Below, piece after piece: positions 29,463 through 35,366 of a stretch of DNA of 64,000 bases. Each line of letters opens with the position of its first letter. The stretch's first letter is position 1. The notes under the pieces are model-generated. The model worked only from the letters and a program-made list of their open reading frames with translations. It was not told where the DNA came from and did no database searches. The stretch comes from Nitrososphaerota archaeon. GTDB lineage: Archaea; Thermoproteota; Nitrososphaeria_A; Caldarchaeales; Calditenuaceae. The translations under genes and the position numbers were made by a program. The stretch spans positions 1,216,001-1,280,000 of the forward strand of contig JBEPYO010000001.1 in NCBI GenBank assembly GCA_041641295.1, written 5' to 3'.

Positions 29463-29593
29463 TCCTCTATATAAGTTAGTGGCTACAACAACTGGTAGTC
29501 CACCTGCCCAAGTATTTACAACATATATACACACAACCCGTTAATACGACACATTTAAATCATTAAAACACATAGCATTGGTCGGTGATAGGA

Positions 29594-30079
29594 ATGCTAG
29601 CACTAGAGCAGGAAAAAGGTCTAACAACGGCGAGTAACAGGAAAATACTTGTGTATGTTGACGGGACAGGCAAGGATGTTAAGGTGCTGGAGGCCGCAGC
29701 TAAGATGGCCATAGAAGAGGGTGCAGAACTTGTCATAATGACGGTTCTGAAGAAGGTTAATAGGGTTCCCGACGAATTTATTAAGTTCGTCAACTCCGAG
29801 AGGTTTACCGACCCTCCACAATACCTCTACTACCAGTACCTTGGTAGGGCAGTACTAGAGCCCTATGTCGCAGTTCTAAGGAATATGAACGTACCCTACG
29901 AGGTTCAGATAGAGTTCGGGGACAAGAAGGAGAGGATCGAGGCCGTCGCTAAATCAATAAAGCCGTACAGGGTTGTCATGTCGGTGAATGGCGGGACACG
30001 GAGGCAGTTCTTTGGTCTCCCGCTCTTCAGGGCTGAGGGAGGCCTCAAGCTCGATTGCCCCATAACGCTGATACCGTAG
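29594..30079 (+). CDS. Universal stress protein (UspA) family
   Basis: KILVYVDG, AELVIMTV, FGD..E.I; GGTGA SD before the ATG. Confidence 0.8.
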   Translation: MLALEQEKGLTTASNRKILVYVDGTGKDVKVLEAAAKMAIEEGAELVIMTVLKKVNRVPDEFIKFVNSERFTDPPQYLYYQYLGRAVLEPYVAVLRNMNVPYEVQIEFGDKKERIEAVAKSIKPYRVVMSVNGGTRRQFFGLPLFRAEGGLKLDCPITLIP

Positions 30080-30126: not shown

Positions 30127-30381
30127 TTAAGGTGTTTTTATTTTAAATTCTTTTCCCTCACAGTCCACAACGCCCTGCACACGCCTGATGAATGAGACGC
30201 AGTTGTAGCACATCAGGAATGCGACGGCCTGACCGGCTACCGGGCACTCCACGTACTCCTTCTTCATCTTCGCTATCATCTTGTTGCTCAGAGATTTCTT
30301 CAGGCTCTCCACAATGCTCTGGTCTACCTTAAGCGCCTTCTGAGCCGTCTTAACCTCTACACGGTATTGTGGCGACCTCAA
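30127..30381 (-). CDS. Small Cys-containing hypothetical protein
   Basis: VECPV...MCYNC...VDC. TATA-like TTTATTAT about 30 nt upstream of TTG 30381; alternative start 30420. Confidence 0.65.
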   Translation of the reverse strand: MRSPQYRVEVKTAQKALKVDQSIVESLKKSLSNKMIAKMKKEYVECPVAGQAVAFLMCYNCVSFIRRVQGVVDCEGKEFKIKTP

Positions 30382-30501
30382 ATCCTGCTGGCGTGATTGC
30401 TGAGCCGGATAATAAATCATCTGCTATACATCGCGCTTCCATGCGCTGTGTAGGGCTCAGACTGTGTTGCAATGTTAATGTTTATATATTGACCAATAGC
30501 T

Positions 30502-30627
30502 ATGTTCAGGCACAGGCGAAGGGTGGTAGTTATTGCTTGGGGCTCTGAACTAGCTCCGTACATCCCATGTGTCGCCGCCACTACTGAAATCTCTGCTCCC
30601 TCCCTTCGCATTCTCCTTCTCTGGTGA
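30502..30627 (+). promoter_or_regulatory. Putative leader peptide / attenuator of the leu-ilv operon (41 codons)
   Basis: MFRHRRRVVVIAWGSELAPYIPCVAATTEISAPSLRILLLW*. Alternative pairings of 30598-30609 with 30516-30526 or with the SD region 30626-30634. Confidence 0.5.
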
Positions 30628-30636
30628 GGGTGGGCT

Positions 30637-32172
30637 ATGAGCTGGAGAAGTTTCTTGGAGGGGGTATATGCTCTTCCGAGTCGTGTATTCTTCTTCGATA
30701 CTACGCTGAGGGATGGTGAGCAGACTCCGGGTGTTGCGTTGCGCGTGGAGGAGAAGGTGTTGATTGCTGAAGCACTCTCCGACTTGGGAGTTGATGTGAT
30801 AGAGGCGGGTTTCGCCGTAGTCTCGCGGGGCGAGTATGAGGCAGTCAAGAAGATATGTGGCTTGGGGCTGAGCTCAAAGATATGCTCCCTAAGCAGGTGC
30901 GAGAAGAGGGATGTTGACGCCGCTGTCGACGCGGGCTGCGACTGGGTCCACGTATTCATAGCGACCTCCGAACTCCACATGAAGTATAAGCTGAACATGA
31001 CGAGGGAGCAGGTAGTTGAGCGGGCTGTTGAAATGGTTGAATATGCGAAGAGCCGGGGTGTTGTAGTCCACTTCTCGGCTGAGGATGCGACGAGAAGCGA
31101 TCCGGAATTTCTGATGGAGGTATACCGGCGCGTAAGGGATGCGGGGGCTGATAGTTTAGACATTCCTGACACCGTCGGTGTCGCTGTTCCACACGTTATG
31201 AGGTCGCTTGCCAGTAGGGCGAAGCGTGAGACTGGCCTGCCTATCGCAGTCCACTGTCACGACGATATGGGCCTAGCCACGGCTAATACTTTAGCCGGCG
31301 TAGAGGGTGGCGCGGAGATAGTGCACGTCACAGTGAATGGGATTGGTGAGCGGGCTGGAAACACGAGTCTGGAGGAGGTCGCAGTCGCCCTCAAATTCCT
31401 CTACGGAGTCGAGACTGGGATAAGGTATGAAAATATTGCGAAGGTCTCGAGGCTCGTAGCCCGGTTGACAGGAATACCAGTCCCCAAAAACAAGGCCGTC
31501 GTCGGGGAGCACGCCTTCTCCCACGAGAGCGGCATCCATGTACACGGGGTGATCAATAACCCCGCCACATATGAGCCAATCATGCCTGAGCAGGTGGGTA
31601 TGAGCAGGCGGATCATCATCGGTAAGCACTCGGGGGCACACTCGGTCAACATGATTCTAAGACAGTATGGCTTCGTCTTAGAGACTGGCGAGGTCAGGGC
31701 TGTACTAGAGAGGGTGAAGAATGTTGCCGACTCTGGTCATAAGCTGAGCGATCAAGAACTGCTGCAGATTGTAAACGAGGTCGTCGGGTCGAGGGCCGTG
31801 AGGCCTGTAGCTTTAAGGGGCTTCCAGCAGATTACAACCGAGTATGGCGACAGGTGTGTGGCCGAGTTTGAAGTTAACGGCGAGACGCTACGCGTCGAGG
31901 GGGTTGGTGACACACCTCTTAAGTCTGCGATAGACGCTTCGCTGAAGGCGTTTACCAACATTTTAGGAGATATTAAAATCGTTGACTACTCTCTCTTTGC
32001 ATCACCATACGAGGATAGACACCCCTACGAGGCCGAGGTCATCATAAAAGTTAATGGAAACACTGTTGTCGGGAGGGGGATTGGCAAGACGAGTGGACAC
32101 ACAATACTAAACGCGGTATCTAATGCAGTTAATCAATACTTGCTAACCCAGTCGCGGGGGGTGGGGAGATGA
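30637..32172 (+). CDS. leuA: 2-isopropylmalate / citramalate synthase (DRE-TIM)
   Basis: DTTLRDGEQTPG, EAGF, PDTVG, HCHDDMG, GERAGN, HESGIH, C-terminal regulatory domain. Cannot separate leuA from cimA by eye. Confidence 0.85.
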   Translation: MSWRSFLEGVYALPSRVFFFDTTLRDGEQTPGVALRVEEKVLIAEALSDLGVDVIEAGFAVVSRGEYEAVKKICGLGLSSKICSLSRCEKRDVDAAVDAGCDWVHVFIATSELHMKYKLNMTREQVVERAVEMVEYAKSRGVVVHFSAEDATRSDPEFLMEVYRRVRDAGADSLDIPDTVGVAVPHVMRSLASRAKRETGLPIAVHCHDDMGLATANTLAGVEGGAEIVHVTVNGIGERAGNTSLEEVAVALKFLYGVETGIRYENIAKVSRLVARLTGIPVPKNKAVVGEHAFSHESGIHVHGVINNPATYEPIMPEQVGMSRRIIIGKHSGAHSVNMILRQYGFVLETGEVRAVLERVKNVADSGHKLSDQELLQIVNEVVGSRAVRPVALRGFQQITTEYGDRCVAEFEVNGETLRVEGVGDTPLKSAIDASLKAFTNILGDIKIVDYSLFASPYEDRHPYEAEVIIKVNGNTVVGRGIGKTSGHTILNAVSNAVNQYLLTQSRGVGR

Positions 32173-33902
32173 AGGCCAGCGACGCCTTAGTCAAGAAGAT
32201 GGAGGAGCTGGGCGTTGAGATAGTCTTCGGCATCCCGGGCGGCGCTAACCTGCCACTATACGACTCCCTTTACGACTCAGATATCAGGAGCGTGCTCGTG
32301 AAGCATGAGCAGCAAGCCGCCCATGCCGCTGAGGGTTATGCCCGCGTCAAAAAGAGGCCCGGAATAGCCCTAGCCACCTCCGGCCCAGGGGCGACGAACT
32401 TGATAACAGGCATCGTGAACGCCTCGATGGATAGCGCACCCCTAGTAGCCATCACGGGCCAGGTAGTCAGGTCCTTTATGGGTACAGACGCCTTCCAAGA
32501 GGCAGACATAGTCGGCATGGTACTCCCCCACGTAAAATACGCCACAGTTGTCGTCGATTCGTCGAGGCTCGTGAAAGAATTTGTCAATGCCTACCGGTGC
32601 GCCATAAGTGGGCGGCCTGGGCCAGCTCTGATAGATATTCCCAGGGATGTTCAACAAGAGGACGTGGGAGATTACGAGCAGCTCGACGACTCTGTCGAGG
32701 AGAGATTCATCAAACCTGCCCCACAGCCCGATGACGGCCAGTTTAGGAGAGCTGCTGAGCTCTTGGCAGCCGCTCAGCGTGTATGCATATTGCTGGGTGG
32801 TGGGACGTACTTCAGTGATGCCACAAGAGAGGCTCTGAAACTCTCTGAGCTTCTCAACGCCGCCGTGATCGCCACCACACCGGGGAAAACAGCCCTCATC
32901 GAAGACCATCCAAACGTCCTAGGGGTGGTTGGAATGCATGGACGCTTCGAGTCTAATCTCGCTGTCATAGACGCTGACGTCATATTGTGTGTCGGTACTA
33001 GGCTCTCAGACAGGGCCATCGGCCCGCCAACAGAATTCAGGAAGGGCAGAAAAATCATCCACATAGACATTGACGGCAGCGAGATTGGGAAGAATGTTGT
33101 CCCCGACGTAGGTATTGTCTGCGACGCCAAAGTAGCCCTAATGAAGATACTGGAAAACCTCTCAGCGCAAGACATCAAGCCTAAGGATCCGGGATGGGTC
33201 TTGGGCCTCAAGGAGATTGGCCGCAGTTTTGACGATTACATGTTTAACCAAGCTGATGGGAGCAGGCTATCGTCTTGGAAGGTTGTCAAGACTATTAGAG
33301 ACGAGCTGCCTAGGAATGCCATAGTGACTACAGGGGTGGGGCAGCATCAGATGTGGTCACAGCTCTTCTTCAAAGTTTTAGAGCCCGGTACCTTCATCAC
33401 GAGCGCGGGATTGGGTACCATGGGCTTCGGCCTTCCAGCAGCTATGGGTGCCAAGGCTGCAGCCCCAGACAGGATAGTCCTCAACATGGATGGGGATGGT
33501 AGCTTCCTGATGACTTGCCAGACTCTCGGAACCATCGTCGAATACGACCTCCCCGTTATCACGGTGATCTTCGACAACCGCTCGCTAGGCATGGTGAGGC
33601 AGTGGCAGGACCTCTTCTACAAGAAGAGGTTCAAGGATGTTGACATCGAGGATAGGACAAACCTAGTCAAGCTCTCTGAGGCCTTCGGGGTTGAGGGTGT
33701 CTTCGTTGAGAGCTATGAGGAGTTGAGGACCGCGCTTAGGAGGGCCATCAGAAACAATGAGGCCCTAGTCATAGACGTGCCTATCGACAAGGACGAGAAA
33801 GTATTCCCAATGGTGCCGCCCGGAAAGTGGCTTGCGGACGTCATCCTCCCACCGGGGTTCAGCTCCTATGTCGAGGAGAAAACTACTAGTCCGGCTAAAT
33901 AA
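32169..33902 (+). CDS. ilvB: Acetolactate synthase large subunit
   Basis: FGIPGG, HEQ, TSGPGATN, AFQE, GMHG, GLGTMGFG, GDGSF, GMVRQWQ. Confidence 0.95.
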   Translation: MKASDALVKKMEELGVEIVFGIPGGANLPLYDSLYDSDIRSVLVKHEQQAAHAAEGYARVKKRPGIALATSGPGATNLITGIVNASMDSAPLVAITGQVVRSFMGTDAFQEADIVGMVLPHVKYATVVVDSSRLVKEFVNAYRCAISGRPGPALIDIPRDVQQEDVGDYEQLDDSVEERFIKPAPQPDDGQFRRAAELLAAAQRVCILLGGGTYFSDATREALKLSELLNAAVIATTPGKTALIEDHPNVLGVVGMHGRFESNLAVIDADVILCVGTRLSDRAIGPPTEFRKGRKIIHIDIDGSEIGKNVVPDVGIVCDAKVALMKILENLSAQDIKPKDPGWVLGLKEIGRSFDDYMFNQADGSRLSSWKVVKTIRDELPRNAIVTTGVGQHQMWSQLFFKVLEPGTFITSAGLGTMGFGLPAAMGAKAAAPDRIVLNMDGDGSFLMTCQTLGTIVEYDLPVITVIFDNRSLGMVRQWQDLFYKKRFKDVDIEDRTNLVKLSEAFGVEGVFVESYEELRTALRRAIRNNEALVIDVPIDKDEKVFPMVPPGKWLADVILPPGFSSYVEEKTTSPAK

Positions 33903-34098
33903 CTCCTACGAGGCTGTCCTGAAGCTCTTGCTCTTCGCAAAGCAAGGGCGGCTAGTGTTAAGCGAGTTTCATCTAAAATCTGACGACGGCGAACTATCGG
34001 CCGAGCTGGTTGTGGAGGGGCCGCCAGAGAAGATCGACTGGTTCGCGAAAAAGGCCAGCGGCTCACCCCTAGTCATAGAGTGTAAAAGTCTCGAGTAG
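33868..34098 (+). CDS. Stand-alone ACT-like protein (candidate AHAS regulatory subunit)
   Basis: 76 aa from ATG 33868; beta-alpha-beta-beta-alpha-beta pattern; overlaps the end of ilvB. Confidence 0.6.
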   Translation: MSRRKLLVRLNNSYEAVLKLLLFAKQGRLVLSEFHLKSDDGELSAELVVEGPPEKIDWFAKKASGSPLVIECKSLE

Positions 34099-34106
34099 CA
34101 GGCGGT

Positions 34107-34379
34107 ATGTCTGGAGGGCTTGTTGTTAGGCTCTTATTCAAAGGGTTGGGGAACGCGATTTCTGCTGCGCGGCTAGTCGGAGAGTTGGAGGGCGTGGAGG
34201 TTAGAGCTATATACATCGGGCGTGAAAGTGTTGAAGAAATGTACGAGGTGGTGTTAGAATTGTCAGCGAGCTCGCAAGTGGTCAACGAATTCTTAAGAAC
34301 CGTGTCATCGAGTAACGGCTTCATAGAGGCTTGTGTTGAGGACTTGGACGCCCGGATCATATGGGAGGGGATCAGGTGA
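34107..34379 (+). CDS. Second stand-alone ACT-like protein
   Basis: 90 aa between ilvB and ilvC with ACT-like hydrophobic periodicity. Confidence 0.6.
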   Translation: MSGGLVVRLLFKGLGNAISAARLVGELEGVEVRAIYIGRESVEEMYEVVLELSASSQVVNEFLRTVSSSNGFIEACVEDLDARIIWEGIR

Positions 34380-34385
34380 AGAGTC

Positions 34386-35366
34386 ATGGCTAGGGTCTAC
34401 TACGACTCCGACGCCTCTCTCAACCCTCTCAGTGGAAAGCGGGTTGCAGTGATCGGTTATGGAAGCCAAGGCAGGGCTCAAGCCCTAAACATCAGGGACT
34501 CCGGGATAGAGACTGTTATCGGACTGAGAGGGGAGGGCAAGTCGTATGAGGCGGCGGTCAAGGATGGGTTCACTCCTATTCCGATAGAAGAGGCTGTCCG
34601 GATATCCGATGTTATCTTGATGCTAATCCCCGACGTGCCCATGCCCGAGACATATAAGAATTATGTCGAAAACAGCCTGACACCCGGCAAGACACTTGTC
34701 TTCGCCCACGGATACAATATACACTATAAGAGAATCATTCCTCCGCCCTACGTAAACGTGGTCCTTGTAGCACCTAAGGGCCCCGGCCCGCTCGTGCGGC
34801 AGAAATACCTCGAGGGGCGCGGAGTCCCCAGCCTCATAGCAGTCCACCAAAACCCCACAGGCAACGCGAAGGAGATCGCCCTAGCGATTGCCAAGGCGAT
34901 TGGCGCAACTAGGGCAGGGGTCATAGAAACGACATTCCAGGAGGAGACCGAGACTGACCTTCTCGGGGAGCAGGCAGTTCTGGTCGGCGGAGTCATGGAA
35001 CTCATCAAGAAGGGGTTTGAATTCTTGGTCGAGAACGGATATCAGCCCGAACTCGCCTACTATGAAGTCTGCAACGAGCTAAAACTCATAGTGGACCTGA
35101 TATACTCGGGAGGTCTGATGCACATGCTCCGCTCCGTCTCCGACACTGCCAAGTTTGGCGGCCTAACAATCGGCCCCCAGATAATCGACGAGACCGTGAA
35201 ACAGAAGATGCAGGAGGCTTTGAGGAGGATAAAGTCTGGCGAGTTCGAGAAGATGTGGACCGGAAACCCCAACGCATACAAGATCCTGGAAGAATTGATG
35301 AGGAAGACGGAGCAGCACCCGCTCGAGGTCGTGGGAAAGAGACTCAGGGAAATGGCACTAATATAG
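34386..35366 (+). CDS. ilvC: Ketol-acid reductoisomerase
   Basis: IGYGSQG, FAHG, APKGPG, ETETDLLGEQ, SVSDTAKFG. Confidence 0.97.
   Translation: MARVYYDSDASLNPLSGKRVAVIGYGSQGRAQALNIRDSGIETVIGLRGEGKSYEAAVKDGFTPIPIEEAVRISDVILMLIPDVPMPETYKNYVENSLTPGKTLVFAHGYNIHYKRIIPPPYVNVVLVAPKGPGPLVRQKYLEGRGVPSLIAVHQNPTGNAKEIALAIAKAIGATRAGVIETTFQEETETDLLGEQAVLVGGVMELIKKGFEFLVENGYQPELAYYEVCNELKLIVDLIYSGGLMHMLRSVSDTAKFGGLTIGPQIIDETVKQKMQEALRRIKSGEFEKMWTGNPNAYKILEELMRKTEQHPLEVVGKRLREMALI

Follow-up and report, generated by a model that had tools for sequence, protein, structure and literature searches.

What controls the leuA-ilvB-ilvC operon of a Nitrososphaerota archaeon of the family Calditenuaceae (assembly GCA_041641295.1), and is the short open reading frame (ORF) just before leuA read by ribosomes as a gauge of amino-acid supply? 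The locus lies in a window of 64,000 nucleotides (nt), positions 1,216,001 to 1,280,000 of the forward strand of contig JBEPYO010000001.1, and positions given below are those of the window unless another origin is stated. Ribosome-mediated attenuation by leader peptides is a textbook mechanism of bacteria, and a preliminary description of the window placed a candidate leader peptide of this kind upstream of leuA. Comparison of this leader with those of its relatives indicates that the branched-chain leader before leuA is real and probably translated. We consider it fairly likely that the 5' leader of leuA-ilvB-ilvC carries a translated ORF of ~31-34 codons that gauges charged tRNA-Leu (and charged tRNA-Ile and tRNA-Val) and acts on leuA initiation.

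Within the window, the ORF at 30502..30627 (+) reads as it was first described: it has 41 codons with the translation MFRHRRRVVVIAWGSELAPYIPCVAATTEISAPSLRILLLW followed by a stop, 13 of them for Val, Ile or Leu, and shares its frame with the leuA start codon, ATG 30637; its TGA (30625-30627) lies inside the GGTGA of the leuA Shine-Dalgarno (SD) sequence, directly after a C-terminus that ends in SLRILLLW. The window alone goes little beyond chance, and the case for the ORF beyond chance rests on the relatives. The class of the source genome was represented by 76 species genomes of one order and four families, 57 of which have a LeuA match at E<=1e-120, at 60 places, and all 60 upstream regions were compared. 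Six of these loci (genera g5 and g15), with LeuA 42-45% identical, no ATTGCT in the last 200 nt and another gene neighbourhood, were set aside, which left 54 leaders (53 distinct sequences) from 12 genera. Metagenome loci were also examined (n=28): three were exact duplicates, four, with 48-49% LeuA identity, had no motif, and the same leader features are kept in the other 21.

The leaders share a motif, ATTGCT, and the frame of the described ORF, referred to here as the long frame, is open from the ATT of this motif for 23-46 further codons in all 54 leaders, the other two frames after the motif closing early or irregularly. The long frame is free of stops up to 12 nt before leuA in 51 of the 54 leaders, and in L005, L046 and L047 it comes to its stop slightly earlier, at 14-16 nt from leuA; with the last 12 nt before leuA left out, the other two frames contain at least one stop in 54/54 and 46/54 leaders, respectively. 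In dinucleotide shuffles the frame was open with a probability of 0.06-0.72 per leader, and multiplying the means of the twelve genera gives 1e-7, a value to be read in the light of genera that are not fully independent, though the middle of the leader is unalignable between them. The position of the stop is conserved as well. With landmarks set without regard to frame, the stop abutting the SD is in phase with the ATT in 40 of the 41 leaders outside genus g7, and in these 40 leaders the distance from ATT to stop ranges from 72 to 141 nt and takes 12 distinct values, all multiples of 3; for the distance from ATT to leuA, all three phases are represented. Read-through of the TGA into leuA was ruled out, the gap between stop and leuA being 9, 10, 11, 14 or 16 nt by genus.

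The end of the long frame is rich in codons for the end products of the operon. Genus means for its last 10 codons are 3.7-9.7 Leu, Ile or Val in 10 of the 12 genera, compared with 0-2.0 and 1.0-3.1 when the same terminal bases are read in the other two frames; examples of the terminal run are LRILLLW, PPLLLL, SSLLLLN, SLLLLLVVL, ALLLL, ICILLL, LLLKLIIL, LVLLIIIIL and HLLLI. Because Ile and Val codons also occur in the runs of several genera, the runs are more than a pyrimidine tract. Among the 168 Leu codons of the terminal runs class-wide, 72 are CTT and 64 CTC, the genome-wide shares of these codons among Leu codons being 14 and 32%, and the genome has a gene for tRNA-Leu(GAG), whose tRNA reads CUY codons. 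Variable sites were spread evenly over the three codon positions (4/4/6, 6/8/4, 23/19/24 and 29/24/29) and no purifying selection on the leader peptide was seen; the peptide sequence itself is thus not selected, as fits a leader peptide. The core of the preliminary description, a leader ORF whose branched-chain codons are so placed that ribosomes reading it could influence the ribosome-binding site of leuA, thus withstands the comparison with relatives by which that description could have been refuted, since the class keeps the frame, its end at the SD of leuA and the run of Leu/Ile/Val codons before it. The details of the description are supported only in part.

Where ribosomes would enter the long frame is a separate matter, in which the first proposal has to be revised. 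The distance from the end of a TATA-like octamer to the ATT of the motif is 35-43 nt in 52 of the 54 leaders, and in the window we take the transcript to start near 30511, as predicted from the position of the TATA box by the archaeal promoter geometry that we assume. The ATG at 30502, originally read as the start, lies 14 nt after the TATA box and for that reason is probably not transcribed; it is in frame in only three of the eight members of the genus, a fourth having TTG. The reservation attached to the first reading, that a TATA box at 30481 predicts a start near 30511 and favours GTG 30523, is judged right, ATG 30502 being upstream of that start. Of the other codons singled out, the VVVI run corresponds to the conserved SD-plus-start region and not to control codons, and the TT pair is not conserved. 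The conserved element consists of GGTG, which resembles an SD, and of ATTGCTY 5-8 nt further on, and is found in this form in 47 of the 54 leaders; the seven leaders of genus g6 have the variant GGTGAGCAAAGTGARCCAACTC in place of ATTGCTY. The 3' end of the 16S rRNA in this genome is GGATCACCTCC, and the most frequent GGTG-to-ATT spacing, 6 nt, is also the most frequent spacing from SD to start at leuA starts. The UUG inside AUUGCU opens a mini-ORF that overlaps the long frame (Table 1).

GTG 30523 is in frame in 8/8 members of the genus. The GTG inside GGTG was nevertheless rejected as a universal start, as its frame relative to the motif varies between genera: it belongs to the long frame in g1 and in some leaders of g2 and g7, to the frame of the mini-ORF in most f3 and f4 genera, and to the third frame in L009, L011 and L014. 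With no frame of its own across genera, this GTG owes its conservation to the SD and not to a role as start. ATT and GCT make up 21% of the Ile codons and 22% of the Ala codons of the genome, respectively, and their invariance in spite of being minority codons points to a constraint on nucleotides. This invariance speaks for AUU as the start, as do the spacing shared with leuA starts and the position of ATTGCT at leuA of Thermoproteia described below. An upstream in-frame stop comes as near as 7 nt (L009). The leader ORF likely starts at GTG 30523 or at AUU 30532. Within its own genome the combination of SD plus TTATTGCTT occurs only at the leuA leader, and the motif was not found in the leuA paralogs of this genome. 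A lone ATTATTGCTT outside the window, at G000:C1:1179831, ~20 nt after a TATA-like GTTATATC, was judged a chance occurrence; it opens TTG CTT GCG ATT GCC TGG ... TAG upstream of a methyltransferase-like ORF.

We propose that ribosomes would start the leader ORF at the conserved SD plus AUUG site (GTG 30523 or AUU 30532) and translate a peptide that would be free to vary while its frame is kept, with Leu codons (Ile and Val codons in other genera) at its end. If charged tRNAs were scarce, the ribosome would stall at the CUU, CUC and AUU control codons, and a stall at the first of them (from CUU 30604 on) would keep the pyrimidine tract, a sequence similar to the anti-SD of the 16S rRNA, occupied and the leuA SD single-stranded and accessible. 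Without a stall, the ribosome would run on and terminate on the SD, and the tract could then pair again. Control would be exerted on leuA initiation and not by a terminator of the bacterial type, a level of control that is favoured because the stop lies 9 nt from leuA and there is no termination signal. The conserved frame, the phase of its stop, the codon runs, the start signals and the lack of a terminator are observed; what we infer in this scheme is the translation of the ORF, the stalling, and the direction and level of control.

Several observations weigh against this proposal. If the stall occurred at the final Leu codons instead, the ribosome would sit on the SD itself, so that the direction of control cannot be deduced. 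Genus g7 (13 leaders) keeps the 5' motif and has neither a Leu run nor a stop adjacent to the SD, and the terminal runs are weak in genera g11 and g12. Ten of the 52 leaders scored have no ATG, GTG or TTG anywhere in frame, so that AUU would have to open the frame there, and a review of archaeal initiation names only AUG, GUG and UUG as start codons. Genus g6 has AGT for ATT, and its long frame is still open. At the level of RNA structure, the helix that would sequester the leuA SD (B:C) is paired in 64% of the alignment cells as compared with 50-61% for slid controls, and shows no covariation; the competing helix (A:B) has one double-sided change, which is not above shuffles; and the leuA SD is predicted to pair no more often than with shuffled leaders. 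A literature search for an AUU start codon in archaea found nothing relevant. The terminal run is also lost in L024. In g7 the long frame overruns the leuA start by 14 nt (22 nt in L034), and the mechanism of the leader may be different from that of the other genera; at the g7 loci L021, L023, L027, L029, L030, L034-L041 and L044, the SD plus ATTGCT and a mini-ORF encoding M-R-L-L-L or M-L-H are kept, and tracts of T4-T5 occur 10-25 nt before leuA.

The two pairings first noted for segment 30598-30609 (segment B) can indeed be formed, either with segment A at 30516-30526 (10/11 pairs, -17.4 kcal/mol at 37 C) or with the SD region at 30626-30634 (8/9 pairs, -12.2 kcal/mol). As mutually exclusive helices they have no covariation support, and the SD helix does no better than slid controls. 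The fold of the leader is no better than that of shuffles (z=+0.48), and an A:B duplex like that of the window is reached by 7.7% of shuffles. The A:B helix is paired in 85% of the cells of the genus alignment (A1) versus 47-62% for slid controls; class-wide, duplex energies against shuffled partners give genus-mean z values that average -0.88 and are negative in 9 of 12 genera (p=0.08), the duplex being strong in L011, L022, L027, L031, L032, L046 and L047 and absent in g3, g11 and g13. For single genera, RNAalifold often predicts that the SD-like segment near the 5' end pairs with a C-rich stretch immediately preceding the control codons. The predicted fold of the leader in the window flips between A:B and B:C with temperature and with the 3' boundary chosen, and the 8/9 pairing of the SD appears in some folds. 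A two-helix switch is possible but not supported. The small hairpin at 30538..30558 is paired in 73% of the cells of the genus alignment, where its changes are one-sided only. Termination in the pyrimidine tract, as first suggested, is not borne out: there are 0 terminator-like sites in 30300-30800 and no run of three or more T in 30590-30636, and an Rfam scan of 30300-30800 at E<=10 returned three matches at chance level and no leader family.

The start site has a counterpart outside the class. In 13 of 19 loci of Thermoproteia, the first codons of leuA itself contain ATTGCT in frame: LeuA begins M-x-I-A-P-T there, coded by ATG/GTG-NNN-ATTGCTCCAACTC. Three loci have ATC at the position of the start codon, and two (L104 and L141) lack ATG, GTG and TTG in the open frame. 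These loci suggest that initiation can be near-cognate and that this leuA start and the one of the leader ORF in Caldarchaeales go back to the same origin. The same mini-ORF in the +1 frame overlaps the leuA start. It is conceivable, though distinctly unlikely in our estimate, that A-UUG-CU is an old dual-frame start within Thermoproteota, in which AUU (or codons just upstream) opens the long frame and UUG the mini-ORF, the supply of charged tRNA-Leu biases the choice, and the leader peptide was born from the original 5' end of leuA. If this were true, the long frame would encode LeuA itself in Thermoproteia but, in Caldarchaeales, the leader with its Leu run, and amino acids would be sensed at the choice of start site or frame. 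The comparison also suggests a way in which a leader peptide may originate from the 5' end of the gene it precedes.

The overlapping mini-ORF from UUG 30533 to UAG 30553 might itself be the primary sensor read by ribosomes, the long frame being secondary or entered from it. UUG is an accepted archaeal start codon, and a stop follows after 5-10 sense codons in all 54 leaders and 12 genera, the baseline for the +1 frame of the long ORFs of the genome being 0.25. Changes within the mini-ORF of g1 are synonymous or conservative (MLG[AG][LVMI][NTD], with GGG/GGA and GCT/GCC exchanged and TAG or TAA kept), GTG for TTG in g6 keeps the mini-ORF start and destroys the ATT, an in-frame GTG gives M-x-L-L-L in most f3 and f4 genera, and in 5/5 loci of g6 a separate leader precedes ilvB, with an SD and a mini-ORF that starts with ATG and reads M-R-(R)-Q-(V/I)-(L/I/P)-stop. 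The mini-ORF of Thermoproteia noted above also fits, but early off-frame stops are expected by chance in these AT-rich genomes. Furthermore, the Leu at codon 2 is set automatically by the invariant GCT of the other frame and is thus not independent evidence, a ribosome stalled at that codon would occupy the start site, and a sensor confined to the mini-ORF explains neither the terminal Leu/Ile/Val runs nor why the stop beside the leuA SD is locked in phase. We regard a primary role of the mini-ORF as rather unlikely; it can coexist with a gauge in the long frame. Entry into the long frame by a programmed -1 frameshift within the mini-ORF was not adopted, as reading of the leader sequences revealed no shared slippery site.

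The terminal runs and the phase of the frame also bear on the other explanations of the locus. A constitutive coupling device, in which translation of the leader opens or loads the leuA ribosome-binding site (RBS) by termination-reinitiation without any sensing of amino acids, accords with a stop 9-16 nt before the start codon, in or beside the SD, which is the usual layout of translationally coupled genes (review: PMC12548453). Plain coupling leaves unexplained why the last ten codons are enriched for the operon's own end products, in this frame only and in 10/12 genera, and we hold it to be very unlikely. We consider it exceedingly unlikely that GGTG...ATTGCT, close behind the transcript start, is an operator or RNA site to which a regulatory protein or some other factor binds, with the frames incidental. 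Such a site could account for a hexamer that is invariant at the nucleotide level, third codon positions included, lies at a fixed distance from the TATA box, is unique in the genome and is common to leuA of Thermoproteia, but the site is not palindromic, and it would not explain the terminal runs, the lack of stops or a phase that persists across an unalignable spacer of 72-141 nt. A classical transcription attenuator of the bacterial type, choosing between terminator and antiterminator in the pyrimidine tract, could draw on the Leu codon run, the alternative pairings and the T4-T5 tracts of g7; set against it are the missing terminator-like sites and T runs, the missing Rfam leader family and a stop 9 nt from leuA, and we give it virtually no credence. 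A translated branched-chain leader acting on leuA initiation is the reading that we prefer.

The genes downstream are largely those first named. leuA (NCBIfam NF002085, 552.5 bits versus a curated cut-off of 517), ilvB (TIGR00118, 629.5 bits versus 538.35) and ilvC (NF004017, 468.7 bits versus 336) all score above their cut-offs; the label ACT given to the two small ORFs between ilvB and ilvC is unconfirmed, as these have no NCBIfam match and no Pfam match at E<=0.01. The two ORFs, 33832-34098 (+) and 34107-34379 (+), have 88 and 90 codons and stand where a small regulatory subunit would be expected. A single leader precedes the fused leuA-ilvB-ilvC operon. Divergent from the leuA promoter region is a 97-codon ORF, 30127-30420 (-), without NCBIfam or Pfam family, which could be a small regulator or no gene at all, and a 164-codon ORF at 29585-30079 (+) carries a universal stress protein (Usp) domain (E=7e-7). 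A genome-wide scan for small ORFs with amino-acid runs before genes gave 177 matches, mostly G/R-rich because of the SD requirement in the scan, and although the leuA leader is included the scan is too noisy for use. Among the relatives, five g6 loci (Terraquivivens-like; L022, L024, L025, L026 and L028) have a gap of ~200 nt between leuA and ilvB, where ilvB has its own TATA box and a leader with an SD and ATG AGG CGC CAA GTC CTC TAA, a second mini-ORF with branched-chain codons. In L090, on a contig titled Bathyarchaeia, a 13-codon ORF, MIEFYLSCRKIVL followed by a stop, lies directly before GGAGG and the leuA ATG and may represent the stop-at-the-SD layout outside the class.

Table 1. Features of the leuA leader and operon in the window, and the related motif in Thermoproteia
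Feature	Position	Strand	Basis or remark
TATA box TTTATATA	30481..30488	+	Direct reading
Purine-rich segment A (GCGAAGGGTGG), containing the leader ORF's SD-like GGGTGG and forming the 5' arm of the long-range helix	30516..30526	+	Nucleotide-conserved in the genus
Conserved leader ORF (long frame), start GTG 30523 (34 codons) or AUU 30532 (31 codons)	30523..30627	+	Open in 54/54 leaders
ATTGCT hexamer, AUU 30532 (long frame) and UUG 30533 (mini-ORF frame)	30532..30537	+	Invariant in 47/54 leaders
7-codon mini-ORF UUG CUU GGG GCU CUG AAC UAG (MLGALN, stop), overlapping the long frame	30533..30553	+	Stop after 5-10 sense codons in 54/54
7-base-pair hairpin UGGGGCU / AGCUCCG, mini-ORF stop in loop	30538..30558	+	In all four predicted folds
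Pyrimidine-rich tract with segment B (30598-30609)	30598..30624	+	Direct reading
Control codons CUU 30604, AUU 30610, CUC 30613, CUU 30616, CUC 30619	within 30598..30624	+	Direct reading
leuA RBS (GGTGAGGGTGGG) and ATG 30637, leader stop 30625-30627 inside	30623..30639	+	Sequence, start spacing, stop phase
Operon proposed to be controlled	30637..35366	+	leuA 30637-32172, ilvB 32169-33902, two small unassigned ORFs, ilvC 34386-35366
ATTGCT at short-type leuA loci of Thermoproteia (L103, L104, L141-L155)	~60-90 nt before the TTLRDGEQ codons		ATTGTT in 4 loci

A probable ribosome-read gauge of branched-chain amino acids, to judge by the sequences compared, would thus be kept throughout a class of hot-spring archaea, control of a kind so far published for bacteria alone. 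A search of open full text, which did not extend to subscription journals and supplementary files, found no archaeal leader peptide reported to sense amino acids; two archaeal Ribo-seq papers, in the passages concerned, call small ORFs in 5' untranslated regions only "reminiscent" of such leaders. The class-wide comparison provides a concrete and testable archaeal case, with an architecture that needs no bacterial terminator and an unusual conserved start site. It offers a route to understanding how archaea couple amino-acid supply to expression without bacterial machinery.

The closest models are the enterobacterial attenuators of leu, ilvGMEDA and ilvBN (leuL, ilvL and ivbL), in which a leader ORF carries a run of end-product codons and the ribosome is the sensor. 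Like leaders of the leuL/ilvL type, the leader described here has a short ORF in the 5' leader, with an SD-like GGGTGG 6 nt before the ATT, and a run of end-product codons that is conserved in relatives while the peptide is otherwise unconstrained. Unlike them, it lacks a hairpin-plus-U terminator and an Rfam match, its stop is embedded in the SD of leuA at a distance of 9 nt from the ATG, its Leu codons are common (CUU/CUC) instead of rare, its likely start is GTG or the near-cognate AUU, and its host is an archaeon with archaeal transcription machinery. Although its proposed sensing logic is theirs, the leader is not filed as a member of this type, as it lacks the terminator that defines the type and matches no Rfam family. 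Leu/Ile/Val leader peptides upstream of leuA or ilvB were also found comparatively in Actinobacteria, as leaders of leuA and ilvBNC (PMC1262725 and PMC11857589); those leaders are described there as attenuators with alternative hairpins, whereas no helix with covariation support is present here. As in translational attenuation of the ermC type (PMC10219788), a ribosome on the upstream ORF (uORF) is proposed to alter access to the main SD, but the proposed stall signal is amino-acid supply and not a drug, and SD pairing is not above shuffles. As in uORF coupling or RBS occlusion (PMC13285730), the uORF ends at the main RBS: TGA 30625-30627 lies inside GGTGA, and 40 of the 41 non-g7 leaders have an in-phase stop next to the SD, as in translationally coupled uORFs. 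The layout of the leuA leader is closer to translational attenuation or uORF coupling than to the leuL and ilvL leaders.

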